Made by a program: the position numbers and the translations under genes
Shown: positions 3,450-21,521 of the stretch, in pieces
Numbering within the stretch: the first letter of the stretch is position 1
Layout: the number at the start of each line of letters is the position of its first letter
Notes under the pieces: model-generated
The model's database searches: none
Seen by the model: only the letters and a program-made list of their open reading frames with translations
Told to the model about the DNA's origin: nothing
Source of the DNA: a virus
Taxonomy: Duplodnaviria > Heunggongvirae > Uroviricota > Caudoviricetes
DNA length: 21,521 nt
Virus record (IMG/VR): IMGVR_UViG_2645727635_000012
Strand: one strand, 5' to 3'

Positions 3450-5108
3450 TTACCATCCTCCTGAACCAAAACGCCCGCCACGGTCACGCCCGGTGCTGCG
3501 TGGGGTGTGTATCTGAAATTTTGCGCTGCGCGATACCGCCAGCGTCCACAGCATGTGCAGACAGTCCGGGCCATCATCGTGGTCGGCTTTGGGGTAGTGG
3601 CGCAGCTGGTCAATCAGCGTCTGATGTGTGTGGCTGATACGAATCAGGCCGTTGGCCATATGCGGCTGAAGGGATTCGATACGCAGTGCCTTATCCTCCA
3701 GCGGGATGACCGGCAGCGCCGGAACCGGCACACCCAGCGCCGCCGAACGCTCAACCAGCACGGTACGCAGAAACTCCTGAAACTGAACGGACTCAAACGA
3801 CCAGCACAGGCAGTGATATTCCCGCTGATACTTAATCACGTCCTCGATAAGTTTATTCGGCAGACGTCGGCGGATATCGGCTTCAACCACATCCAGAATG
3901 CCGGTAAAGCGGTTAAAGCCCCCCACGAGAATGGCCGACGGGTCGCGGTTTTTATTCTTCTTCCCGAGACTGGGGTCAACAGCGCCGTAGAACACCCATT
4001 CATCAAGACGGTTAACCCAGAACTTAATGCAGCCCGCAAACAGCGCATCTTCACCGCTGACCGGGTCGTTCTGGTATTCAGAATCAAAGGTGTCATGACC
4101 GTCACGGACACGAATTTTCATCAGCGCCAGCAGGGGACGCGCCGCCCATGACACCACCGACCCGGCGAGCATCTCAGCCTCGTTCTGTCGGTAAAGTGCC
4201 TCCGCTGCTTCCGGCTGTTTGTTGCGGATGAGTTCTTCCCACTCGTCCCACAGCTTCATGTTGGCAGGCCACTGAATAACGGCCTTAAAGCGGGCCGTTT
4301 TCCACATCGGGTTATTGAGTGTGCGCGACAGTACGGAGTCGTAATGCAGGATGGTCCCGATATAAATAATATCGGTTTTACCGCCAGCCTCACCCAGCGG
4401 CATCACGGTTTTGGTGAGCCAGTCATGCAGCTTGTCGCGCTGCTCCGGGTTACGCACCATCTCGTCGTTCTCGATATCGTCGAGGATGACCAGGTCAGGA
4501 CGGTACGGACCGTGGCGCAGACCACGCAGTTTTTTACCACTACCGGCAACGGTCACCTTGATATTGTTGGCTGTGACGATGGTCCCCATACGCCAGACGC
4601 GACCCTGCCCGCACACCTCCGGGAAATCGTTTTTTAAACGGGGGTTAAATTCCAGTTCAGCCTTGATGGCTTCCAGCATCGGATAAGCCTGGTCGATACT
4701 GTCCATAATGATGACCGGGTAATGCTTAATGGCCCGGATAATGTTCCACAGGGTAAACAGCTGAGTCACCAGCGTGGATTTTGCTTCACCACGAGGCGCG
4801 GCGATGGCGTCGTTCTCCGGGTCCGGGCTTGCCACAACCTGTGGCAGACGGCTGAACAGGTATTTATGCAGCTCACTTTTTGCCGGGTTGCGGACGTAAT
4901 GCGGGAAATAGTTTTCGACAAAATAATCGTAGCCCGTCACCGGGTCGCAGACTGCCGCCCGGCGGGCCTGTGTGGCCTGCGGGTTAACATCGAACCCCAG
5001 ACATTCAGCCTCGATGGTCTGGCGGAGGTTGGCGATGTACTCCTGCAGGCTTCTCTGAAACTCTTTAATGGAAAGTTTACGTTTTGCCACGTCACACCTG
5101 GTATACAA
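3450..5108 (-). CDS. Terminase large subunit, Mu gp28-like
   Basis: 552-aa ORF with ATPase-like segment (DLVILDDIENDE) and nuclease-like C-terminal half; alternative GTG start about 18 nt inside preceded by AGGTG. Confidence 0.85.
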   Translation of the reverse strand: MYTRCDVAKRKLSIKEFQRSLQEYIANLRQTIEAECLGFDVNPQATQARRAAVCDPVTGYDYFVENYFPHYVRNPAKSELHKYLFSRLPQVVASPDPENDAIAAPRGEAKSTLVTQLFTLWNIIRAIKHYPVIIMDSIDQAYPMLEAIKAELEFNPRLKNDFPEVCGQGRVWRMGTIVTANNIKVTVAGSGKKLRGLRHGPYRPDLVILDDIENDEMVRNPEQRDKLHDWLTKTVMPLGEAGGKTDIIYIGTILHYDSVLSRTLNNPMWKTARFKAVIQWPANMKLWDEWEELIRNKQPEAAEALYRQNEAEMLAGSVVSWAARPLLALMKIRVRDGHDTFDSEYQNDPVSGEDALFAGCIKFWVNRLDEWVFYGAVDPSLGKKNKNRDPSAILVGGFNRFTGILDVVEADIRRRLPNKLIEDVIKYQREYHCLCWSFESVQFQEFLRTVLVERSAALGVPVPALPVIPLEDKALRIESLQPHMANGLIRISHTHQTLIDQLRHYPKADHDDGPDCLHMLWTLAVSRSAKFQIHTPRSTGRDRGGRFGSGGW

Positions 5109-5142
5109 ATATCAGACGGCCCGGAAAACCGGGCCGCTGTGG

Positions 5143-5643
5143 TTAACTGAAATTATCCTCAAGCTCTTTAGCGAAGCCTTCGAGCACCTCAAGAAACGGG
5201 GCATACTGTGCCGGGTGACGCTCCTTGATGAACGCGCCGAGCCGCTGCACCACTTCCAGTGCCGTGGCGAGCCGGTCGGTTTCCGGCAGGATTTTTTTAC
5301 TGCTGGCCACCGCCTTACTGAGACTGTCAGACAGACTCGCCAGCAGTTCGACGGACTCCTGCGGCGGGATGTCCGGGTTCTGGTTCAGCCGTTCAAGCGT
5401 CGTCTGACACTTCACCACCAGACTGATAAGCACGGTGCGGGCGACACTTTCCAGCCCGTCACCGGCGAGCGCGTGCGCGGCCCGCAGCTTGTCCCAGTCG
5501 TCGCCGTTCTTCATCGCCTGCGTTTTCCAGCGCCGCGCGGTATCGTGCGGCACGGCGTATTTCATGGCGACGATATCCAGCGGAAGCTGGTCAAAGATGT
5601 ACCCGTTACGGACTTTGTCCCTGATATCCTGTGACCACGCCAT
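5143..5643 (-). CDS. Terminase small subunit candidate (Mu gp27-like)
   Basis: 166-aa ORF immediately upstream of TerL in the same orientation; N-terminal region looks like a DNA-binding domain; assignment by synteny. Confidence 0.5.
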   Translation of the reverse strand: MAWSQDIRDKVRNGYIFDQLPLDIVAMKYAVPHDTARRWKTQAMKNGDDWDKLRAAHALAGDGLESVARTVLISLVVKCQTTLERLNQNPDIPPQESVELLASLSDSLSKAVASSKKILPETDRLATALEVVQRLGAFIKERHPAQYAPFLEVLEGFAKELEDNFS

Positions 5644-6179: not shown

Positions 6180-6362
6180 TCAGTTCTGTGAACACTGCCG
6201 GATGCCATCAACAATCCGGCAGACCTGCGCCGCCGCGTCAAACAGCTGGCCCGCCCTGTTAATGTCTGTGCATCCCACCGGAAGCAACATCATCAGAAAC
6301 AGGGCCAGAACACAGCGCGCGGCTTTACGTGGCGTCCTGTGGGTCCAGTGCTGACGCGTCAT
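6180..6362 (-). CDS. Putative lysis-associated small lipoprotein (o-spanin-like?)
   Basis: 60-aa ORF with basic N-terminus, hydrophobic stretch and Cys (LLPVGC); start overlaps the endolysin stop by 4 nt. Confidence 0.5.
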   Translation of the reverse strand: MTRQHWTHRTPRKAARCVLALFLMMLLPVGCTDINRAGQLFDAAAQVCRIVDGIRQCSQN

Positions 6363-7566: not shown

Positions 7567-7753
7567 GAGTTTCTCCTGTAAATCTGAGCCACTGACGGCC
7601 CGTAAATAACACCCTGTCAAAGGCACAAAAGCCTTTTGCAGGGCGCTATCCCTTAAGGTGCCTTGTGGTCTGAGTGGACAGGGTAAACGGTCTGGTGTGG
7701 TGGGTACTGCTGGGGGTGTTCAGCACCCCCGGCAGGTTGATTATCTGGATGGA

Positions 7754-8041
7754 TTAAAGGGAAGCGAGTTTTAATGGTGGCTTATAACATGCCCGCGCCA
7801 GCAGGTTAGCTCTTTCCACGGCATTACGCATTTCCCGTTCTGCGTCAATCATTCTGTTTACGGCGGACAGCACTTCATCATGATTCGTTACTGATTCCGG
7901 GCTTTGGGCCTGTTTCGCCAGGTAACTGGATAAATTGCACATTTCAGCATGTCGGCGACGGGCTGCATCCCGGGCCTTGTCTGAAAATGCGGTATATTCA
8001 CCGAGTACTGCATAGTCGATATCGGTGTCAGAACGCATCAT
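7754..8041 (-). CDS. Hypothetical protein (95 aa), first gene after the Mor/C-family activator
   Basis: ORF with AAGGAG Shine-Dalgarno 7 nt upstream of ATG. Confidence 0.5.
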   Translation of the reverse strand: MMRSDTDIDYAVLGEYTAFSDKARDAARRRHAEMCNLSSYLAKQAQSPESVTNHDEVLSAVNRMIDAEREMRNAVERANLLARACYKPPLKLASL

Positions 8042-8068: not shown

Positions 8069-8536
8069 TTAATCAAAAAGCCCCACCTGGGTGGGGCTTT
8101 TCAGCGAAGTCTGTTTTTGTCGTCGGTGTATCAGCTGCCATGCGTACCGGTCTGAAATGCCGTAACGGGGACAGAGCAGTGCCAGCGCCTGCCGGTGTGA
8201 GCATCCGTCTTTTACATGCTGCTGTAAATCAGCCATAAAACGGGTGTTACGCAGGGCACGTAACGCATGATCGCAACGGGGAATGTAAAACGGAGCACCG
8301 CCAAGAAAGCGGATCAGTTTGTTGATTTCGTCTTCGGTCAGCACGTCATGTAACAGGGCATGGACACCGCCGGTGCGTTCGGCGTGTACGCCGGTTTTAC
8401 CGCTTAACGTCACGCCACCAAAAGAACGAATCAACCGGGTCAGGGCGGGGAAGCCAATCACGCTAATCAGTTGCTGCACGGAATCGGGCAGCAGTGCCTG
8501 CGCATCGCGAAGATCTGTTTCACTGAAGGTCTGCAT
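8069..8536 (-). CDS. Mor/C-family transcriptional activator (middle or late gene activator)
   Basis: 155 aa; C-terminal region LGGAPFYIPR...RYGISDRYAWQLI matches the Mor/C family signature; GGAGA Shine-Dalgarno; sits between early region and lysis genes. Confidence 0.8.
   Translation of the reverse strand: MQTFSETDLRDAQALLPDSVQQLISVIGFPALTRLIRSFGGVTLSGKTGVHAERTGGVHALLHDVLTEDEINKLIRFLGGAPFYIPRCDHALRALRNTRFMADLQQHVKDGCSHRQALALLCPRYGISDRYAWQLIHRRQKQTSLKSPTQVGLFD
8075..8101 (-). terminator. Intrinsic terminator overlapping the last codons and stop of the Mor/C-family gene
   Basis: GC-rich stem AGCCCCAC / GTGGGGCT flanked by A-run and T-run; on the minus strand the hairpin is followed by UUUUUGAUUAA. 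Confidence 0.6.
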
Positions 8537-8559
8537 GATGGCGTCTCCGGTAGTAACTT

Positions 8560-8595
8560 ACTGTTATTATAGTCATACATGATCGCCTGTACAGA
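8560..8595 (-). promoter_or_regulatory. Candidate activator-dependent promoter for the Mor/C-family gene
   Basis: Perfect TATAAT on the minus strand (plus 8566..8571) about 30 nt upstream of the start codon; poor -35 (CTGTAC), as in activator-dependent Mu middle/late promoters. Confidence 0.35.
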
Positions 8596-8597
8596 CC

Positions 8598-8625
8598 ACA
8601 AAAAAGCCCCTGCATGGCAGGGGCT
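8598..8625 (-). terminator. Intrinsic terminator downstream of the cargo gene
   Basis: Perfect 9-bp stem AGCCCCTGC-atg-GCAGGGGCT followed on the minus strand by a U6 run. Confidence 0.7.
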
Positions 8626-8635
8626 AAACTAAGTC

Positions 8636-9112
8636 TTATTTAGTCAGGTCTAGAATAACCAGGCCTTTTCTTGATTCTATTTGCTCTTTACCAAAAACAA
8701 ACGAATCAAAACAATCCATACGATATTCTTTAAACTGATTTCTTGAACGTTCCAGAAACTGCCTGTCATCCCTGATAACGTTAGACCAGTAATCCTGTAG
8801 CTGGTTTTTCATTTTTATGCAGGAACCATACACAGGATCAAGCGGGTCGTCCCCCAGTTTACTGGCCTGTTCATCCAGTTGTTTTAGTCCTTTTTTGATA
8901 TTCTTCCACTCTTCAATATTTCCCTGCTGATACTGCGATGCAGCTTCTGGCATAGCGTAATAAAGTTTTCCACTTTCCCGAAGTATCTGTTCAGCCAATG
9001 GCTTCATATCCTGATAACGTTTCAGTTCCTTTTGCGCCTGTTCCTCTGTCTGTGCCAGCACAGAACAAGAGAAAATAACCCCTACTAAACAAAACAACCA
9101 TTTTTTCATCAT
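8636..9112 (-). CDS. Secreted or periplasmic protein of unknown function (cargo gene, lower GC than neighbours)
   Basis: 158 aa with N-terminal signal peptide MMKKWLFCLVGVIFSCSVLA; visibly AT-rich codon usage; start overlaps GemA stop (ATGA); followed by its own terminator. Confidence 0.7.
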   Translation of the reverse strand: MMKKWLFCLVGVIFSCSVLAQTEEQAQKELKRYQDMKPLAEQILRESGKLYYAMPEAASQYQQGNIEEWKNIKKGLKQLDEQASKLGDDPLDPVYGSCIKMKNQLQDYWSNVIRDDRQFLERSRNQFKEYRMDCFDSFVFGKEQIESRKGLVILDLTK

Positions 9113-9507
9113 TGATTTCTCCTTCTTGAATCTTTAACCAGCGCCACCATCACTCCAAAAAGCTGTTCATCCGTCAGCCATTCGATCACATGTTGCTTAT
9201 ACATGTGAGATGCCAGTCCTTCCGCATACGCCCAGGAACGACCGGCATCAGCCAGTAACGCTTCAATTTTGGATAATACCGATTTTCTGCTCATTGCAAC
9301 ACGAGGGCGGCGACCTTTACCGGCGGGGGCCTTGCGCGGAAATCCCTGTTCATGCATGTATTCCCGGATGATGCGCAGTTCATCGAGATTGCAGCGTGTG
9401 GTGCTGGTTTTACCGGTCAGACGGGCCAGCGTCTGGCGATAAAGGGCATCATCCCACCCCAGATACGCCTGACCGGCTTTAATGGCCCCGATCATCTTTT
9501 TCAGCAT
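9109..9507 (-). CDS. gemA: GemA-like protein (Mu gp16 family, DUF1018)
   Basis: Start trimmed to the internal ATG with GAGGAT Shine-Dalgarno; motif GWDDALYRQTL...GKTS...LDEL...GF matches the gp16/GemA pattern; lies upstream of the Mor/C gene as in Mu. Confidence 0.75.
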   Translation of the reverse strand: MLKKMIGAIKAGQAYLGWDDALYRQTLARLTGKTSTTRCNLDELRIIREYMHEQGFPRKAPAGKGRRPRVAMSRKSVLSKIEALLADAGRSWAYAEGLASHMYKQHVIEWLTDEQLFGVMVALVKDSRRRNQ

Positions 9508-10007: not shown

Positions 10008-10177
10008 CGTTTTGCTCTCCTGCGTTTCTTTGCTTCGCGTCGTGCAGCTGCAATACCGGTATGGCGCTTTGGTGCCGGGATGATGCTGTCAGCCATCAGG
10101 GCATGTGGCTTTGCAATTAGCGCAGAAGCCCAAAAACGAGTCGGGTATGGTAATAAACCGATAAACGCTACACGCAT
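10004..10177 (-). CDS. Unannotated 57-aa protein: hydrophobic N-terminal half, poly-basic tail (RREAKKRRRAKR)
   Basis: Not in the ORF track (under 60 aa); strong AAGGAGG Shine-Dalgarno 5-6 nt upstream; ATG overlaps stop of the 165-aa gene (TAATG); manual translation. Confidence 0.45.
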   Translation of the reverse strand: MRVAFIGLLPYPTRFWASALIAKPHALMADSIIPAPKRHTGIAAARREAKKRRRAKR

Positions 10178-10674
10178 TACGCACCTCCTTTGGCGTCAAT
10201 ATTTACAGCCTGGCAAGCCTCGTTGAGTACCCAGTCAACCGCGTCTTTCCATGCTCCGGTTTCGACTGGCGGATTCTCACACTTTACCTGTTCATAGAAA
10301 CGCACTGCTTTAACTAGTCCTTCCGGCACTACCGACGCTGGCGGGGCAGCATAAAGCTCATGCATTCCATCAGGTAGCGAGTGACCTACATACTCACTGA
10401 ACCCATCAACACACATGCATCCATCTTCAACAATGCATGACGCTACTGGCAAAGCCACCTCCCGTGCCTCCAGTTCTTCTGCCCACTCCCGAAGCCCTTC
10501 AATCTCACCATTACGAGCTATCAGATCGCGACACAGTCTTTCGTTTTCATCCAGCAACGCCTGCACAACCTCCGGCGTAGCCGCAGCATGAAAAGCCTGT
10601 AGGTTCTGCCACGTCGTATCCCCCTTCGCGGCCTCTGTCACCTCACGCAGTGCCTGATAGTTAATCTCGCTCAC
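10177..10674 (-). CDS. Hypothetical protein, possibly ead/Ea22-like family (165 aa)
   Basis: N-terminus MSEINYQALREV...PEVVQALLDENERL resembles the ead/Ea22-like family from memory; Cys-rich middle; overlaps upstream gene. Confidence 0.5.
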   Translation of the reverse strand: MSEINYQALREVTEAAKGDTTWQNLQAFHAAATPEVVQALLDENERLCRDLIARNGEIEGLREWAEELEAREVALPVASCIVEDGCMCVDGFSEYVGHSLPDGMHELYAAPPASVVPEGLVKAVRFYEQVKCENPPVETGAWKDAVDWVLNEACQAVNIDAKGGA

Positions 10675-14521: not shown

Positions 14522-15415
14522 TCAGTGAATTAACATTTCTGAATATTTATCAATGGCCTGCACACTGACCGGTGCATCGCTGATATCACAAATCCGGTAC
14601 ACACCGCGCGCCAGCTTGAACAGACGACGGGCATTGCCCAGCGAACGTGTGTAAAGTGCCTCACCAATTTCCGGGTCTGCCGCTTCCGGCATCATGTCTG
14701 TGGCAATCTTGTTAAAATCTTCCTGCGTCAGCGTATCGCCCAGGTTAAGCGCCAGCGCCACGCGGCTGTATAATTGAGCGAACTCACCACAACGGCCCTT
14801 AAGGTTAATCAGAAGGTGAGGCATACCCGCCAGGACAATCCCGATACCCGCTTTGTCATGCAGACGGCGCAATACCTCCAGTGCACGATAGGGAAGCAGT
14901 TCAGCCTCATCCACCATCAGCAGACGACCTGACCCACGCAGTTCACGCACACAGGCATCAATCTTCTCGCGAATATCGCCGTGAACCTTTATACCCAGCT
15001 GACGGCACAGTTCATCGAGTAACTTTCTGGCCGTATAGCCAATATCGGCTTCAATGAGCACTACATCCCGGTTTCTGGCAGCATACTCACTCAGAATCAT
15101 GCTTTTACCCAGACCCGCCGCGCCATACAGCACGCAAATATCACACTCCAGATGGGCGTAGGTCAGCACCTCCAGCCCTTTGGCGGCCATGCCGGTGGTG
15201 ACAAATCGCACTTTAATACGGCGGTTGTTTTCCTTTTCCCATTCACGGGTCACAAAGGCAGAAATGCGTTCTTCAATATCAGCCATATCGCCCTGATATT
15301 TACCCTGCAAATACTGGTTAATAACGGCGCTGCTACGACCAATAGCACGGGCAACGTGGGTCTGCGTAAAGCCGCGACGGGCCATTACGTCATTTAATTG
15401 CGTAATTAAACTCAT
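14522..15415 (-). CDS. B: DNA transposition ATPase B (MuB-like, AAA+)
   Basis: 297 aa; N-terminal helix-turn-helix-like region; Walker A LYGAAGLGKS; directly downstream of the transposase. Confidence 0.9.
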   Translation of the reverse strand: MSLITQLNDVMARRGFTQTHVARAIGRSSAVINQYLQGKYQGDMADIEERISAFVTREWEKENNRRIKVRFVTTGMAAKGLEVLTYAHLECDICVLYGAAGLGKSMILSEYAARNRDVVLIEADIGYTARKLLDELCRQLGIKVHGDIREKIDACVRELRGSGRLLMVDEAELLPYRALEVLRRLHDKAGIGIVLAGMPHLLINLKGRCGEFAQLYSRVALALNLGDTLTQEDFNKIATDMMPEAADPEIGEALYTRSLGNARRLFKLARGVYRICDISDAPVSVQAIDKYSEMLIH

Positions 15416-15433: not shown

Positions 15434-17476
15434 TTAACGATTATTTGTGCCGTTTTTCTTTAAATTGCGCTCACGGTCAGACACGAATAAATAAAGTTCT
15501 TCTTTTTCCTTTTTCTCCTGGCGTTCCAGTCCATATCCCAGATTAAAGTCAGGCTTCTGCGTAATAGCCGGGGTAAGCTCGCGTTTAGCCTCTTCGATTT
15601 TCTGCGTGGCCCGTGCAATGCGGCCTCTGGCGCGTTTCTCCTGCTGCTGTTCGATAACAGCTTTCGGGAACGCATCAACCTTATTACCGTTCCAGATGGC
15701 ATCGCAGATATAAGAACCGTCCATCCGCCTGACAATCACGCTGTTTGCGTCGTGAATGTCGTAACAAACCCTGACTTCATTTCCATGCTCTGCTGCCAGT
15801 TCTGTGGAGAAATAGATGTTTCTGAATAACACCACTTCACCGCGTCGCACTGTGCAGATGCTTTCCGGTCGGAACATTTCGTGAAGTTCTTCCGGCGACA
15901 GCATGTCAATTTCAGTCTTCTGCTCTTTTATCAGTTTCCGGCGATACGCTGCCGGGCTGTAATGTTCGCCATCCTCTTTGCGGGGAAGGCTGCTGTGTGG
16001 CCGGTTGTTATACCGTTTCACCTCCAGCTCTATTGCGGCCAGCAGTTGCTCAAAGGTGGGGACTTCTCCCATCGCTTTAACCTGCCGTTTTGTCAGCTCT
16101 TTCCCTTTGTGGGTGGCCTTAATGGCTGACTGTGTGATGCGTTGCTGCATCATCACCGTTTCCTTGTCTGCATTTTTTGAGCAGTACGTCTGGAAACTCA
16201 GAGCCACATCTTTGGGTATTCCTTTGTTTGCTCGTTCTATTACCCCGCGCCCCTGCGGGTTACCAGGTATCCCCGTGTGATGCTCCACACCCAGCCGGGG
16301 CAGAATCCCGGTAATATCGGCATCAAGTACCTGGTTTTTTTCACCGCCCCCGTTATCGGAGTAATAAATCAGCGGTATTCCGTGTTGTGACATGCCATGA
16401 CGCAATGCATCAGCGACGGCCACCACGTTCTCCGACAGGGACAGCGACCAGCCCACAATAAAGCGTTGCCCAGCATCCATAACCAGCGTCACTTCTGGCC
16501 GGAATGTATTCCCGGTGGCAGGGTTGAATGCCATCAGTTTCATACAGTGACCATCCCCGACCCATACCGCATTAACCGGTAATGTGCTCCAGTCGCGCCG
16601 CACAAAGGGATTGAGCGAACGCCAGGCTGAACCCGTGGAGCGGAAACGCTCTTTAACAATCACCGGGACGCTGCTTAACACCCGTCTTACTGCGTGAACT
16701 GAAGGCAGTGCCGCCAGCATTCCCGCATCGTTCGCGTGTTTTTCATGCCACCAGGCTGAAAACTCACGATACGCATATTCAACGGTCGGGCGCTTCCATG
16801 AGCGATAGAACATAAAGAAATCGCTCAACCACCAGACCTGCTCCCACGGTGTTCCCTTATGATGACCGGGAGCCAGTAACGCCAGTAACTGATTGGCATC
16901 ACCGCGCGCCATCACCCAGCTGGAGTACCAGCTATCCAGGCTGCCGGTGCTGACACCGGTTCGCTTTCCCTGACGTGCATTTGCAGTATTAGCTGCTTCG
17001 ATAATGCGGTCAGGTAACGCCCCCATGCGCACACCATCAACGATGTGCTTTAACGCGGCCTTCCTGGTCATTCCGGCGTATTCGCGCAGTTTATGCACTT
17101 CAGTAGCCAGCAATATCCGCGCATCAGCGATGGCCTTTTGCTTGTCAGTCAGTGCCTGGACTTCGCGTAATGCCAGTTCCGGGCATTTGACCATCACCTC
17201 CAGTTCATCGCGAACGGCGACGTTTTTAACTGCCTTCTGCTCAACCACGGCGGGCAGTTGCGTATCTTCCAGGACCTGATGGGTCAGGCGCTTACGTAAA
17301 ACTTTCTGCGCTTCAGCGGGCAGGCAGTCGATGTGATACTCGAATGCTTTGGTGCCTTCACGCTTGCGCTTCCATTCCGGGTGCGTCTCTGTGATCCGAT
17401 TGAGCGTCCAGCGCACCCCCTGAACTGTACCGGGCAAACCAGGAAGACCGGCCAGCTCATTGGCTGAATAAAACAT
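15434..17476 (-). CDS. A: DDE transposase A (MuA-like)
   Basis: 680 aa, between ner and B; size and synteny match MuA; start overlaps ner stop (TAATG). Confidence 0.9.
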   Translation of the reverse strand: MFYSANELAGLPGLPGTVQGVRWTLNRITETHPEWKRKREGTKAFEYHIDCLPAEAQKVLRKRLTHQVLEDTQLPAVVEQKAVKNVAVRDELEVMVKCPELALREVQALTDKQKAIADARILLATEVHKLREYAGMTRKAALKHIVDGVRMGALPDRIIEAANTANARQGKRTGVSTGSLDSWYSSWVMARGDANQLLALLAPGHHKGTPWEQVWWLSDFFMFYRSWKRPTVEYAYREFSAWWHEKHANDAGMLAALPSVHAVRRVLSSVPVIVKERFRSTGSAWRSLNPFVRRDWSTLPVNAVWVGDGHCMKLMAFNPATGNTFRPEVTLVMDAGQRFIVGWSLSLSENVVAVADALRHGMSQHGIPLIYYSDNGGGEKNQVLDADITGILPRLGVEHHTGIPGNPQGRGVIERANKGIPKDVALSFQTYCSKNADKETVMMQQRITQSAIKATHKGKELTKRQVKAMGEVPTFEQLLAAIELEVKRYNNRPHSSLPRKEDGEHYSPAAYRRKLIKEQKTEIDMLSPEELHEMFRPESICTVRRGEVVLFRNIYFSTELAAEHGNEVRVCYDIHDANSVIVRRMDGSYICDAIWNGNKVDAFPKAVIEQQQEKRARGRIARATQKIEEAKRELTPAITQKPDFNLGYGLERQEKKEKEELYLFVSDRERNLKKNGTNNR

Positions 17477-17712
17477 TACGCCGCCTTACTGGCATACCGG
17501 CTTGGCCAGATCTCCGCAGGTTCCACACCAATAGCATCGGCTATGATGCGTTCATATTTAGGGCATGAGCGATACAGTGCATTTTTTAAAGAGTCTTTTT
17601 TTAGACCAGCGCGTTCAGAAAGTTCACGCAATGTAAAACCTTTGGTGTGCACAGCGGCAACGATGTACTCGCGGTGCCAGTCTTTGTTCATTACTTCATT
17701 TCTAACCATCAT
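17476..17712 (-). CDS. ner: Ner-like DNA-binding regulator
   Basis: Contains DWHR...IWPSRY, matching Mu Ner; start trimmed to ATG with AAGGG Shine-Dalgarno; divergent from the repressor gene. Confidence 0.85.
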   Translation of the reverse strand: MMVRNEVMNKDWHREYIVAAVHTKGFTLRELSERAGLKKDSLKNALYRSCPKYERIIADAIGVEPAEIWPSRYASKAA

Positions 17713-17728
17713 TAGGTTACCCTTAAAA

Positions 17729-17771
17729 GTTATCCGTGCGGATAACACCGCCGTGTTATCCCTTCGGATAT
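17729..17771. promoter_or_regulatory. Candidate operators in the ner/c divergent region: GTTATCCG-tg-CGGATAAC (17729..17746) and imperfect TTATCC-cttc-GGATAT (17756..17771)
   Basis: Inverted repeats sharing the GTTATCC half-site, in the ner 5' leader; another inverted repeat CTTTCTTT...AAAGAAAG lies about 50 bp upstream of the repressor start. Confidence 0.5.
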
Positions 17772-17880
17772 AAGTATTGATCTACAAATAGAAAATTACA
17801 AGCTTTCTTTTCTTTCTTTGATGAAAAGAAAGTCTTTTTGTAGAAATACATTGTAAATCAATATATTGCGAGGAAAGAAA

Positions 17881-18528
17881 ATGAGTAAACAAACCGCCGA
17901 TGATTTTTCCTTTTCTCAGAATAGAAAAGAAAGCATTCAGGACAGAATCAAGCAACTGGTTGGCACTAGGAGTCTGCGTAAAGCCACCTCAGACTGGGGG
18001 TTGCCGTACTCGACCATAAATAACTACTTTGAGAAAGGCACCACTCCCGGCCTAAATGTGGTCGCTACGATAGCAAAATTAGAGAATGTATCACTGGAAT
18101 GGTTGGTCTACGGTGAGAGCAGGCATGATCCAATAATAGAAAAAAAGGTGCCTACAGAAGACGTTAACCGCCCAAACACAAGTATTGTCGATGAAATACT
18201 AAGGCGAGCTACTCCAGAAGATAGAGAGCGTCTTATTGATATGCTGTGTTGTATTGGCATCAAAGGAGTCCTGGAACGCCTACAGCAACCCACCAGGCAA
18301 ACCAAGCAAGCCGATAGCGAACTTGAGGAACAAAGGAAGGCCATTCAAAGCCTGAACATCAGGCAATCGCTTAAAGACGCTGTTTGCATGGCATTAGCTG
18401 GCGATGAGGAAAATGACAAAGAGATTTTGCGCCGCGCCAAAGCTATTTTCTGTGCTGGAACACCAGGTGATCGCGTTCCCGTCACACCGGAGCAAGAAAC
18501 TAAGCCTGTAAACAAGAAATCAGCATAA
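17881..18528 (+). CDS. Prophage repressor (Mu c-like position; CI-type helix-turn-helix N-terminus, no peptidase domain)
   Basis: Start trimmed to ATG with AGGAAAG Shine-Dalgarno; N-terminus ...GLPYSTINNYFEKGTTPGLNVVATIAKLENVSLEWLVYGE resembles phage CI-type DNA-binding domains; divergent from ner. Confidence 0.65.
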   Translation: MSKQTADDFSFSQNRKESIQDRIKQLVGTRSLRKATSDWGLPYSTINNYFEKGTTPGLNVVATIAKLENVSLEWLVYGESRHDPIIEKKVPTEDVNRPNTSIVDEILRRATPEDRERLIDMLCCIGIKGVLERLQQPTRQTKQADSELEEQRKAIQSLNIRQSLKDAVCMALAGDEENDKEILRRAKAIFCAGTPGDRVPVTPEQETKPVNKKSA

Positions 18529-18840: not shown

Positions 18841-18861
18841 GGTTATTTGCCGTTAAACTGT

Positions 18862-19413
18862 TCATGCGTTAGTTTCTCCACAGACACAAAACGCCACGAC
18901 GCCCGGAGCTGCACACTCGCGGGCGTTACTCTTTTCTGGAGCGCAGAAGATTTTGTAGACCAGTGCTGCATGCTCCTGGAGCTTCGAAATTGACAGATAC
19001 AACTCATCATTAATTGCTGTCTGCTCGTGTGGCTCCACTACCCCATCTTCGATTGCCGAACGAATCTGCTTTGAGTAACTCCCGATCTGTTCGATGACTT
19101 CCAGCAGGCGCTGGTTTATATCGGCGTTCTCTACTTCCTCAATTTCTGGAAGTGATACAAACACCCCACCAGCAGACTGTGCGACAGCATCCGCAATGTG
19201 GTGAGTACCAGCCGCACGCTGTAAAACCATTGCCCATCCCAACGGAAAAAACTGATCGCCATCGGCACGAAGGCGGTTGAATAAAGCGTTCTCTGTTACA
19301 TCCAGCCACTCAGCAGCTTCAGCGTAACCCCCCGGCAACACCGCGATAGTTTTTCTGACAGCTTTCACGTACCACTCAGGCTGTTTTTCCACTTTCCAGT
19401 GATGCTTACCCAC
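18862..19413 (-). CDS. Hypothetical lambdoid early protein downstream of cro (183 aa)
   Basis: ORF overlapping the cro stop by 8 nt, same orientation. Confidence 0.55.
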   Translation of the reverse strand: MGKHHWKVEKQPEWYVKAVRKTIAVLPGGYAEAAEWLDVTENALFNRLRADGDQFFPLGWAMVLQRAAGTHHIADAVAQSAGGVFVSLPEIEEVENADINQRLLEVIEQIGSYSKQIRSAIEDGVVEPHEQTAINDELYLSISKLQEHAALVYKIFCAPEKSNARECAAPGVVAFCVCGETNA

Positions 19414-19666
19414 GGCTTACCTCCTGTTCCTGTGGTTTTAACTCATTCCGGTTTTGACTAGATTGAAAGCGTGCAGGATAGAGAATCTGCATTTCGCTGA
19501 TTTCTCCCTTAAAAAAATTGGCCAGACGTTCTGCAAGCTCGATAGATGGAATTTGTTCCAGTCTTTCAATACGACTCAGCGTCGCTGGATTGACCTGAAC
19601 GCCCGCAGCAACATGCTGCAAAGTAAATCCGTGCGCCTTACGCACATTCCGTAATGGTGATTGCAT
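19406..19666 (-). CDS. Cro-like helix-turn-helix regulator (XRE family)
   Basis: 86 aa with helix-turn-helix-like segment; divergent from the CI-like gene; GGAGG Shine-Dalgarno. Confidence 0.75.
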   Translation of the reverse strand: MQSPLRNVRKAHGFTLQHVAAGVQVNPATLSRIERLEQIPSIELAERLANFFKGEISEMQILYPARFQSSQNRNELKPQEQEVSRG

Positions 19667-19680
19667 ATAACCTCCACATA

Positions 19681-19743
19681 TTGCGTGATGAGCATATTAT
19701 TTCACGCAAATATTTTGCGCAAGTTGATTTGCTTAACGCGCAA
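19681..19743. promoter_or_regulatory. OR-like operator/promoter region between cro-like and cI-like genes
   Basis: TTGCGTGA...TCACGCAA inverted repeat (19681..19709), palindrome TTGCGCAA (19715..19722), TTGCTTAACGCGCAA (19729..19743); cI-like ATG has no obvious Shine-Dalgarno, so its transcript may be leaderless. Confidence 0.55.
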
Positions 19744-19763
19744 TAAAGAAATGTAATAAACGC

Positions 19764-20456
19764 ATGAACATAGGAAATCGAGTCAGACAACTTCGCCAGG
19801 CGAAGAACATGAAAATCGCCGATCTCGCTGAAGCAATAGGAGTGGATGCGGCGAATATCTCGCGCCTCGAAACAGGTAAGCAGAAACAATTCACTGAACA
19901 AGCCCTGAGTAATATTGCCAGGAGCTTAGGTGTTGATATTGCTGATCTCTTTACCTCAGACCTCAAAAGTAATACTGTATGTAAAAACAGTATTAGTGAG
20001 GATGTTGCGCAGGTGAAGGATGTATTCCGTATTGAAATGCTGGATGTCAGTGCCAGTGCGGGAAATGGCCTTATCCAGGGCGGTGATGTCATTGATGTGA
20101 TTCATGCCATTGAATACAGAACTGATAATGCTGTATCGATGTTTGGTGGACGACCAGCAAATCACATTAAAGTTATCAACGTTCGTGGGGACAGTATGTG
20201 TCCAACCATTGAGCCAGGAGATCTCATCTTCGTTGATATCAGTATCAATCAGTTTGATGGGGATGGTATATATGTATTTGGTTTTGATGATAAAATTTAC
20301 GTCAAACGACTGCAAATGATACCTGATAAACTGCTGGTAATTTCTGATAATCAGATTTACCGCGAATGGGGAATTACCAGCGAAAACGAACATCGGTTTA
20401 TGGTCTTTGGAAAGGTCTTAATCAGTCAGTCACAAACCCTTAAGCGACACAATTAA
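19764..20456 (+). CDS. CI-like repressor with LexA-type S24 peptidase domain
   Basis: N-terminal helix-turn-helix (IADLAEAIGVDAANISRLETGK); C-terminal S24 signature VRGDSMCPTIEPGDLIFVD with downstream catalytic Lys context (YVKRL). Confidence 0.85.
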   Translation: MNIGNRVRQLRQAKNMKIADLAEAIGVDAANISRLETGKQKQFTEQALSNIARSLGVDIADLFTSDLKSNTVCKNSISEDVAQVKDVFRIEMLDVSASAGNGLIQGGDVIDVIHAIEYRTDNAVSMFGGRPANHIKVINVRGDSMCPTIEPGDLIFVDISINQFDGDGIYVFGFDDKIYVKRLQMIPDKLLVISDNQIYREWGITSENEHRFMVFGKVLISQSQTLKRHN

Positions 20457-20477
20457 CCCCCTACCTCAACATCAATT

Positions 20478-20498
20478 AGCCACCAGAAGGTGGCTTTT
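20478..20498 (+). terminator. Intrinsic terminator after the cI-like gene
   Basis: Stem AGCCACC-agaa-GGTGGCT followed by TTTT. Confidence 0.7.
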
Positions 20499-20511
20499 CA
20501 TTACCCACCAA

Positions 20512-20551
20512 ATTGCATATCTCGCAATAAAAACACTTGCATAATGCGCAA
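20512..20551. promoter_or_regulatory. OL-like operator region downstream of cI
   Basis: ATTGC-atatctc-GCAAT (20512..20528) and TTGCATAATGCGCAA (20537..20551), the latter matching the OR motif at 19729..19743 at 12 of 15 positions. Confidence 0.4.
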
Positions 20552-20976
20552 CTTCATTTTATCTTTCTTTCCAGACCTACAAACAAGGTACTAACAAAAT
20601 TTGGTTGTAACACGGCGTATGGCACATGCGTCGTTAGCGGTCTGGGGACGTTAAAGGGGACAATCCACTCCTTGCTCGGGCAAACAAACCAGGTAGCCGG
20701 AATGTGCAAGTCAATGAGGATGCTGATAAGACGCCTAACCAGCGTGGCGATTCGGTTTGACGCCTGGGAAGAGACCAGGGTGCAACGATGAGGGCATTTA
20801 TGGAACCGCGACAAAGTGTGGTGCCGTAACTGGCTAAGTGCTCTCAGCGTTGTGGTAATCCGCGAAATGGCGCGGCGGTAAGTATGGCGGGGTTATTCCT
20901 TCCCCGTTGAGGACACCGGGTTGTCAGGTTGACCATACGCTTAAGTGACAAGCCCACCACAACAGCCACTGCTTTG

Positions 20977-21022
20977 GCGGTACCAGTTTGTACACTTGCT
21001 TCCGGCTGGTACCGCTCTTTTT
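20977..21022 (+). terminator. Intrinsic terminator in the leader upstream of the 21160 gene
   Basis: Perfect 10-bp stem GCGGTACCAG / CTGGTACCGC with 19-nt loop, followed by TCTTTTT. Confidence 0.65.
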
Positions 21023-21159
21023 ACAAAACAGAGAAGAGCATCACCGGACGACGGGCTCATAACCCAATCCACCCGGGCGGCTGCCACCGCAGGTGTTCTT
21101 CTCTGTTTTGTGGAGAAACCAACCGACCTTGCAGGGTCGATATGATGAGGAGCAGCAAA

Positions 21160-21521
21160 ATGGCTAGCGAACGCAGTACTGATGTGCAGGCATTTATCGG
21201 GGAGCTGGACGGCGGCGTATTTGAAACCAAAATCGGCGCAGTTCTCAGTGAAGTCGCTTCAGGTGTGATGAACACGAAAACCAAAGGTAAGGTCTCACTC
21301 AACCTGGAAATCGAACCATTTGATGAGAACCGTGTGAAAATCAAACACAAACTCTCATATGTTCGCCCGACTAACCGCGGGAAAATTTCCGAAGAAGACA
21401 CCACCGAAACGCCGATGTATGTCAATCGCGGTGGTCGCCTGACTATTCTGCAGGAAGACCAGGGACAATTACTGACTCTTGCCGGTGAACCTGACGGAAA
21501 ACTCCGCGCAGCAGGTCATTA
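21160..21521 (+). CDS. Hypothetical protein, 5' partial (runs off the window end)
   Basis: ATG preceded by GAGGAG Shine-Dalgarno 7 nt upstream; open frame to the window end; not in the ORF track because no stop is present. Confidence 0.6.
   Translation, partial: MASERSTDVQAFIGELDGGVFETKIGAVLSEVASGVMNTKTKGKVSLNLEIEPFDENRVKIKHKLSYVRPTNRGKISEEDTTETPMYVNRGGRLTILQEDQGQLLTLAGEPDGKLRAAGH

Follow-up and report, generated by a model that had tools for sequence, protein, structure and literature searches.

Classical lambdoid morons, in the concept of Hendrix and Juhala, possess their own promoter and terminator and are expressed from a repressed prophage, and the early-made envelope proteins Llp of phage T5 and Imm and Sp of phage T4 block superinfection. 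Among transposable phages, the Mu-like phages of Pseudomonas have regions of genomic plasticity, including an anti-CRISPR locus (Cazares et al. 2014, PMC4378225), and phage Mu has small accessory open reading frames (ORFs), gp18, gp19 and gp20, between the genes of its two activators, mor and C. Here we analyze a 21,521-nucleotide (nt) stretch of viral DNA (IMG/VR record IMGVR_UViG_2645727635_000012), referred to below as the window, which is the left half of a Mu-like transposable prophage with the relevant genes on the minus strand. The gene in question encodes a protein of 158 amino acids (aa), a member of what we call family A, and is located between gemA, the final conserved gene of the early operon, and the only Mor-family activator gene of the window (Table 1). 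The slot that it occupies is a hot spot of exchange, with the 3' end of gemA on one side and the early-operon terminator on the other, and it holds either family A, one of at least three other unrelated AT-rich genes for predicted exported proteins, or nothing. We are highly confident of the anatomy and evolution of the gene and the slot as described below. That it is a dispensable accessory gene of a Mu-like prophage, expressed early, and that its exported product has a role in conflict is, taken as a whole, the best explanation at present and one that we slightly favour.

The 158-aa gene resembles the morons in being an extra gene of atypical composition which is present in some prophages and absent at the same place from their close relatives; unlike the lambdoid morons, it has neither a promoter nor a terminator of its own. 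The slot, with four unrelated families or no gene at one fixed site, is a region of genomic plasticity in the sense used for the Pseudomonas phages, whose regions likewise lie at fixed positions between core genes and hold zero to several accessory ORFs that are often AT-rich and restricted to a group of phages (PMC4378225). It differs from them in host group and position, in that every occupant seen here is predicted to be exported, and in that the exchanges are precise ORF-level replacements which reuse the operon's own terminator. The closest counterpart in Mu is the region from mor through gp18, gp19 and gp20 to C, which shares with the lineage studied here the order of gemA, activator, small accessory ORFs, second activator and lysis genes, and also a GC-rich dyad with a T-run after the early operon (PMC4287176); gp19 is an intervening envelope protein with several hydrophobic segments. 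Unlike Mu, the window lacks the upstream activator, the activator that it does have scores only ~26 bits against Mu Mor or Mu C, and the intervening gene belongs to the early operon, before the terminator, its product being predicted to be soluble and exported and having no relation to gp18-20. No new kind of system is involved, since single-activator transposable phages and accessory hot spots in phages of the Mu type are both known concepts.

The slot and its occupants

The ATG of the 158-aa gene (9112-9110) overlaps the stop codon TGA of gemA (9111-9109) as ATGA, and its Shine-Dalgarno sequence AAGGAG is located within the 3' end of gemA. The GC content of the gene is 0.398, and 0.390 at third codon positions (GC3), versus 0.52-0.55 for gemA, the Mor-family gene, MuA and MuB; just 1.5% of all 477-nt segments across the 21.5-kb window are equally GC-poor. 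The initial annotation, made from the letters of the window, of a low-GC gene for a signal-peptide protein translationally coupled to gemA thus holds. As the 158-aa protein has no family match in any library, one could suspect a spurious ORF within an AT-rich spacer. The ratio of nonsynonymous to synonymous substitution rates (dN/dS) between family A alleles is, however, 0.08-0.14, with synonymous sites saturated, which means that the ORF is a real gene under purifying selection; length, signal peptide, two cysteines and one tryptophan are kept down to 25% identity, the structure model is confident and the Shine-Dalgarno sequence is strong. The suspicion is already refuted by the signature of selection, and we assign it a negligible probability.

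This type of prophage is carried by 58 of the 5,426 complete Escherichia coli genomes, where the states of the slot were assigned by the gemA-to-activator span (four lengths) and checked on the fetched loci L002-L006. Family A is found in 23 of the 58 genomes (12 with allele 1 and 11 with allele 2) and six times in IMG/VR, family B (112 aa) in 11 genomes and five times in IMG/VR, and family C (174 aa) in five genomes and, as a hybrid, once in IMG/VR; the slot is empty in the remaining 19 genomes and seven times in IMG/VR. Family D (175-176 aa, GC of 0.32-0.39) is present between two activators in Xenorhabdus ehlersii, Photorhabdus and Morganella. The four families all have predicted signal peptides and a GC content of 32-43%, they have no similarity to each other, and none of them matches a described family. 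A comparison of the intervals from gemA to the C-type activator across Mu-like relatives, suggested by the initial annotation, thus yielded two-activator layouts, four cassette families and empty slots.

Alignment of five slot states revealed that the hairpin, in one of two variants, is retained in all of them together with the promoter as far as the start codon of the activator gene, and that the variable segment extends from the last ~8 codons of gemA, the left recombination joint, up to just before the hairpin. The terminator consists of a 9-base-pair (bp) GC-rich hairpin (8625-8605) followed by a T-run (-17.6 kcal/mol, z = -3.0), and in an empty-slot relative (L002) it is located directly 3' of gemA, the gap being 119 nt. 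Because empty-slot relatives keep both the terminator and the promoter, these elements are parts of the backbone; the terminator, described initially as the gene's own and strong, is indeed strong and is not its own.

The cassettes themselves are exchanged by recombination. Alleles 1 and 2 of family A are 76% identical in nucleotide and 70% in amino acid sequence, and the synonymous divergence (dS) between family A alleles is 1.0-2.8 versus 0.04-0.42 in the adjacent gemA and activator genes, which means that the alleles are old lineages recombined into young backbones rather than products of fast local evolution. To the hybrid gene (L029, 2401-2901), the signal peptide of family A contributes its first 12 residues (MKKWLFCLVGVI), which are joined to a family C domain, whose mature part is 35% identical to family C of L004, and one recombination joint is thus located inside the signal-peptide coding region.

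Family A is small. It comprises 10 clusters in a set of 5.8 billion proteins and 11 representatives in a set of 1.84 billion, all named 'hypothetical', from E. coli, E. albertii, Salmonella, Yersinia enterocolitica and Xenorhabdus, and no homologue of the 158-aa protein was found by tblastn among 50,697 phage records. The variant of E. coli E2348/69, a strain that carries the same prophage in eutC at 98-99% identity, is one residue away from that of the window and occurs on about a thousand assembled E. coli contigs. Every family A context that was read is a Mu-like prophage, in which the gene lies at the boundary of early and late genes as the last gene before a gap of 75-100 nt. It follows gemA in the window, in E. 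coli, Yersinia and Salmonella and in loci L035-L039, and it follows a Mor-family gene by 8-10 nt in Xenorhabdus (L031 and L032) and in read or metagenome assemblies (L033 and L040); thus 0-10 nt separate it from the gene in front, which is gemA in one arrangement and the unrelated upstream activator gene in the other. In all lineages, family A is AT-rich (GC of 0.35-0.44 versus 0.44-0.54), and since low GC is found in every relative, composition is not a mark of recent acquisition. Optional as it is and GC-poor in every relative, family A is no conserved core Mu-like gene of typical composition and no fresh import either, but a long-standing optional resident of the slot. The term 'cargo gene', used at first, is apt inasmuch as the prophage can do without the gene and unrelated genes for predicted exported proteins take its place, and misleading inasmuch as it is a recurrent resident of this slot and has so far been found nowhere else. 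In one E. coli genome (P0010), the match of a 106-aa protein to family A is broken into two parts around a scrambled central portion; this protein is apparently a frameshifted copy which reads through the terminator.

The predicted exported product and its proposed role

The N-terminus of the 158-aa protein, MMKKWLFCLVGVIFSCSVLA↓QTEE, shows the tripartite build of a signal peptide for signal peptidase I: two basic residues (KK), a 12-residue hydrophobic core with a mean Kyte-Doolittle (KD) value of 2.5, and a predicted VLA↓Q cleavage site. The pattern is kept in 16 of 16 aligned family members at 25-30% identity, with cores of KD 2.0-2.7 and VLA↓Q or equivalents, and by these heuristics the product is predicted to be a Sec-exported periplasmic protein. 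Cys16 varies within the family, several members having Phe or other residues in its place, so that the protein is no lipoprotein; the context IFSC is also atypical.

The AlphaFold model built with the family alignment has a predicted local distance difference test (pLDDT) score of 85.8 and a predicted template modelling (pTM) score of 0.75, and contains four helices, 3-62 (including the signal peptide), 67-84, 96-114 and 117-151. The modelled fold is a generic four-helix bundle of periplasmic type and nothing more specific. Cys98, Cys134 and Trp109 are invariant in the family A alignment, and the two cysteines lie 17-18 residues on each side of the turn between helices 3 and 4 of the model, a spacing which would fit a disulfide staple between the two helices. 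A profile search of PDB sequences gave nothing under E 0.04, the top matches being designed helical bundles. The four-helix periplasmic domains of Tar, PcaY, NarQ and QseE are alike in fold only, with non-significant Foldseek matches, and talin and designed bundles score similarly, as is typical of any four-helix bundle; unlike these sensors, the 158-aa protein has no second transmembrane helix and no signalling module, and it ends after helix 4. A periplasmic sensor domain of the 4HB_MCP type was also considered and rejected, since no sequence-family match was present in Pfam, and no match to a known defence system was obtained with PADLOC. We found no paper on the gene or its slot; the family is undescribed.

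How the protein is likely made follows from its position. The 158-aa gene would come last in the early operon and be translated from a Shine-Dalgarno sequence of its own, with transcription stopping at the backbone terminator, and its expression would follow the firing of the early promoter upon infection or induction. Such joint expression with the early genes is suggested by the lack of a dedicated promoter in both arrangements. After predicted Sec export and cleavage by signal peptidase I, the product would be a soluble 16-kDa periplasmic four-helix bundle, probably stapled by a disulfide. The initial suggestion that it acts in exclusion, immunity or host modulation is plausible. The role that we propose for it is that of an envelope-acting conflict protein, which would either block DNA entry of competing phages or mask a receptor during lytic growth. 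Conflict at the envelope is favoured because all four families are predicted to be exported, AT-rich, optional and exchanged between near-identical phages; the exchangeable cassettes and the old alleles would then reflect different targets, and selection in the slot is apparently for envelope functions in lytic growth, as every occupant is exported by prediction. Llp of T5, Imm and Sp of T4 and Sim of P1 are likewise small proteins, exported or in the membrane, whose action in the envelope is directed against incoming phage or protects progeny; Llp, Imm and Sp are made early in the lytic cycle. No kinship in sequence or fold between them and the 158-aa protein emerged, and a shared role is hypothetical.

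Several points weigh against this proposal. No homology or experiment ties the protein to exclusion, and its export is itself a heuristic prediction. The fold is generic, with no PDB or viral match to the model in Foldseek at E <= 0.001, and scans of the protein and its 16 aligned members against Pfam, PHROG, NCBIfam and PADLOC gave noise only, although distant family A members matched two PHROGs of unknown function; of the profile search and structure prediction recommended at the outset, the former thus found no family in the libraries and the latter gave a confident bundle. Expression from the early promoter is deduced from the gene layout only. Finally, prophage exclusion genes usually pay off by protecting the lysogen, which this gene cannot do if it is not expressed there. 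We put forward an exclusion function as tentative, and regard as equally doubtful the broader possibility that in enterobacterial Mu-like phages the slot is a dedicated cassette site for early-expressed exported conflict factors, of which the four-helix bundle would be the most widespread and in whose neighbourhood either activator paralogue would be dispensable.

A different possibility is that the gene is active in the lysogen and serves lysogenic conversion, with a periplasmic product that would either modulate the host or, as an orphan immunity protein, counter a bacteriocin or a peptidoglycan-targeting type VI effector. The product is, as far as can be predicted, exported, disulfide-containing and all-helical, the gene is AT-rich like many morons, varies between otherwise identical prophages and is present in pathogens, e.g., the enteropathogenic E. 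coli (EPEC) strain E2348/69. A scan of gemA on the strand of the 158-aa gene found no promoter-like site; a weak match, TTGCAA-15-TATTAT, can be read by eye inside gemA at ~9299-9273 and is under the criteria of the scan. There is no intergenic space upstream of the gene, and since the upstream gene is a different one in other lineages, an embedded promoter would need two origins; no match to a defence model was obtained either. We thus consider lysogenic conversion unlikely. It is also conceivable that the protein takes part in lysis timing and regulates holin or endolysin action from the periplasm, much as the periplasmic domain of T4 RI does. The 158-aa gene is located two genes upstream of the two holin-like genes of the window, family A is directly upstream of the endolysin gene in L033 and L040, and the protein is helical and predicted to be periplasmic. 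The terminator, however, separates the gene from the lysis genes and places it in a different transcription unit, the lysis cassette changes (GH108, GH24 lysozyme, Amidase_2, M15 peptidase) while family A stays, and the gene is absent or replaced in near-identical prophages with the same holins, which makes this role quite improbable.

What was a 'hypothetical protein' becomes a defined experimental target, found so far at one position of Mu-like prophages only, and natural controls exist in near-identical prophages whose slot is empty or holds a divergent allele or one of three other cassettes. If the slot is such a dedicated cassette site, its families would be an unrecognised set of periplasmic phage-conflict factors, for example blockers of DNA entry or of receptors. 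Most worth pursuing are the observation that all occupants of the slot are predicted to be exported and the loss of opposite activator paralogues in different lineages, considered next.

The Mor/C activators and their control

Prophages of Xenorhabdus, Photorhabdus and Morganella have two paralogous Mor-family activators which flank the slot: the upstream one belongs to the early operon, where it is coupled to gemA, the downstream one is located past a gap of ~90 nt, and the slot is between them. When species-representative genomes were scanned with the downstream clade, prophages with two activators turned up in Xenorhabdus ehlersii, Photorhabdus cinerea and Morganella morganii; the GemA of Morganella is 55% identical to that of the window. 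The window has a single Mor/C-family gene, as initially annotated: when it was compared by phmmer --max with all six-frame ORFs, the next-best match had E 1.2, Pfam scans of the remaining small ORFs of the window gave no Mor, and no gene in the rest of the E2348/69 prophage is annotated as Mor. The 158-aa protein was also considered as a Mor/C activator and rejected, having no Pfam match and only noise (E = 7.3) in a phmmer --max comparison with the activator of the window. The two-step cascade of the Mu type, with two paralogues of which the first is in the early operon, is thus found neither in the window nor in the E2348/69 prophage.

Which of the two paralogues is missing can be judged within the lineage. 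The activator of the window is 48-55% identical to the downstream activators and 36-39% to the upstream ones, which indicates that the upstream, mor-equivalent paralogue is the one that the window lacks. Where family A is present in Xenorhabdus, the Mor gene before it is 36% identical to the activator of the window, and the gene after it (152 aa, with no Pfam match on record) is 54% identical. Bit scores are 109-213 among downstream activators, 143-282 among upstream activators and 62-108 between the clades, and both clades have only 20-30 bits to Mu Mor or Mu C; the scores of the activator of the window against Mu Mor and Mu C, 26 and 27 bits, are uninformative, and it was the comparison within the lineage that resolved the clade.

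The ancestral order was likely gemA, upstream activator, slot and downstream activator, and in the simplest history the lineage of the window would have lost the upstream activator. Against this it can be said that loss here, rather than gain elsewhere, is a parsimony argument from ~10 loci. In the lineage of L033 and L040 it is the downstream activator that would have been lost, because the endolysin gene follows family A directly there. The Mor-then-C cascade has apparently lost either member independently, with the window keeping the downstream activator and L033 and L040 the upstream one, and this reciprocal loss provides natural material on how late timing is kept with one activator. Of the two options initially offered for the window, the reduction of the cascade to one activator is therefore supported by the existence of two-activator relatives and by the downstream clade being the only one kept.

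The other option was that a horizontally acquired cargo gene replaced mor. The 158-aa gene is AT-rich and is located directly downstream of the position which the upstream activator has in two-activator relatives, as a replacement would be. Family A, however, coexists with the upstream activator, following it directly in Xenorhabdus, L033 and L040, the near-identical E. coli prophages with an empty slot are also devoid of the upstream activator, and, as family A is AT-rich in every lineage, composition dates no acquisition. These observations already contradict a replacement of mor, and we consider it very improbable.

With the upstream paralogue lost, the question of what drives the remaining activator arises. 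It would be driven from the conserved sigma-70-like promoter past the terminator. The -35 element TGTACA matches the consensus at four of six positions and is devoid of TTG, the spacer is 16 nt long, and the overall match is 10/12; the string CTGTACA...TATAAT is kept even where the activator is only 66% identical to that of the window. The TATAAT with a poor -35 element that had been noted is thus there, with a -35 that is mediocre rather than absent. The Mu middle promoter Pm has no -35 element and needs Mor bound at a dyad at -51 to -36 (PMC4287176), and in Mu the Mor dyad and a T-run are located directly 3' of mor. The promoter of the window has, unlike that of Mu, a partial -35 element, and the only dyad of the window is the terminator stem, ~45 bp 5' of the centre of the -10 element versus ~34 bp in Mu, i.e., ~11 bp, or about one turn of the helix, farther upstream than the Mu Mor site at -43.5. 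The 4/6 match of the -35 element and the more distant dyad suggest that the promoter may be activator-independent or autoregulated.

The timing of late transcription could come from the activator protein itself. The activator of the window ends with QVGLFD (8069-8092), and members of the upstream clade end with QHDLF, QCDLF, QSSLF or QDSLF. According to Ho and Harshey, a clamp-binding motif QL[SD]LF / QPDLF is required for the activity of Mu C (PMC12867686). Both QVGLFD and the ends of the upstream clade resemble this beta-clamp-binding motif of the Mor/C family, and coupling to replication through it could supply the timing; if this is true, timing in single-activator phages could come from the clamp-binding motif of the activator that remains.

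A few sequence details around the promoter deserve mention. Position 8573 (-14) is A in the window, in an identical IMG/VR contig (L012) and in L028, and G in the other 32 loci; the region reads GGCTATAAT with G and GGTTATAAT in L037, versus GACTATAAT. G at -14 would match the G of an extended -10 (TGn) motif. The palindrome CTGTACAG, sought across the window as a shared operator, has one exact copy there, with one-mismatch copies at chance level. The -35 region of the activator gene contains CTGT-N8-ACAG in L037 (6535-6563) and CTG-N10-CAG in L035, L036, L038 and L039; these have the core of a LexA box with a GC-rich centre, and the window has CTG-N10-CAT. SOS control of the activator is thus possible in some lineages. 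In prophages with the upstream activator, the motif CCACTGAAC(C/A)C is located just past the stop codon of family A (L031, 6469-6490; L033, 6454-6475; L040, 2670-2690) with a hairpin and a T-run behind it that reach up to the following start codon, and a similar CCACTCAGACC is present in the window (7680-7690) 5' of a holin gene. Both may be candidate activator-dependent promoter elements.

Gene layout of the window

The features of the window are collected in Table 1. Small early ORFs lie between the transposase B gene and gemA. Past the 95-aa ORF that follows the activator gene come two holin-like genes, a gene for a GH108 endolysin, DUF1804, the large terminase subunit gene and head genes.

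Table 1. Positions of the features of the Mu-like prophage in the window
Feature	Positions	Strand	Basis or remarks
Repressor	17866-18528	+	prophage gene order
Ner-like helix-turn-helix gene	17476-17748	-	prophage gene order
Transposase A (MuA)	15434-17476	-	prophage gene order
Transposase B (MuB)	14522-15415	-	prophage gene order
gemA, final conserved early-operon gene	9109-9507	-	Pfam GemA 1.5e-18
Shine-Dalgarno AAGGAG of the 158-aa gene, within the gemA 3' end	9119-9124	-	read from sequence; 6 nt 5' of the start
158-aa gene (family A)	8636-9112	-	ORF call, selection, structure model
Predicted signal peptide, codons 1-20, MMKKWLFCLVGVIFSCSVLA↓Q	9053-9112	-	alignments and hydrophobicity/charge heuristics, 16 members
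Predicted mature protein, 138 aa	8639-9052	-	16.4 kDa; acidic, isoelectric point 5.7; hydrophilic, grand average of hydropathy -1.0
Intrinsic terminator of the early operon; right recombination joint	8600-8625	-	slot-state alignment and folding
Promoter of the activator gene, TGTACA-16-TATAAT	8566-8593	-	in 35 of 35 loci with this gene order
Mor-family activator, the only one in the window	8069-8536	-	Pfam Mor 1.7e-6; phrog_836 3.5e-42
95-aa ORF, phrog_7152 (no assigned function)	7754-8041	-	invariably 3' of the activator in this lineage

The Mu-like prophage apparently ends at ~18840. The remaining 2.7 kb (18841-21521) correspond to early genes of lambdoid prophages (XRE regulator, ymfL, yfdP and Rha), with matches in many E. 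coli genomes that reach 100% identity, which suggests that the Mu-like element is here inserted in another prophage, unlike the eutC insertion of E2348/69. The large terminase subunit gene adjoins DUF1804 in the window (5108-5143) and likewise in STEC316, and a 741-nt DNA methyltransferase gene is located between the two in E2348/69, 08-00022 and the Yersinia loci, making this a second presence/absence slot. The Ead/Ea22-like gene at 10177-10674 has 92% nucleotide identity to phiV10 and 79-85% to P1 and Stx phages and is a mosaic segment common to unrelated temperate phages; it was the sole match in a megablast comparison of the region with phage records. An Rfam scan of the entire window gave no match. 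A 60-aa ORF 3' of the endolysin gene (6180-6362) contains a lipobox-like LPVGC and is possibly a spanin component.

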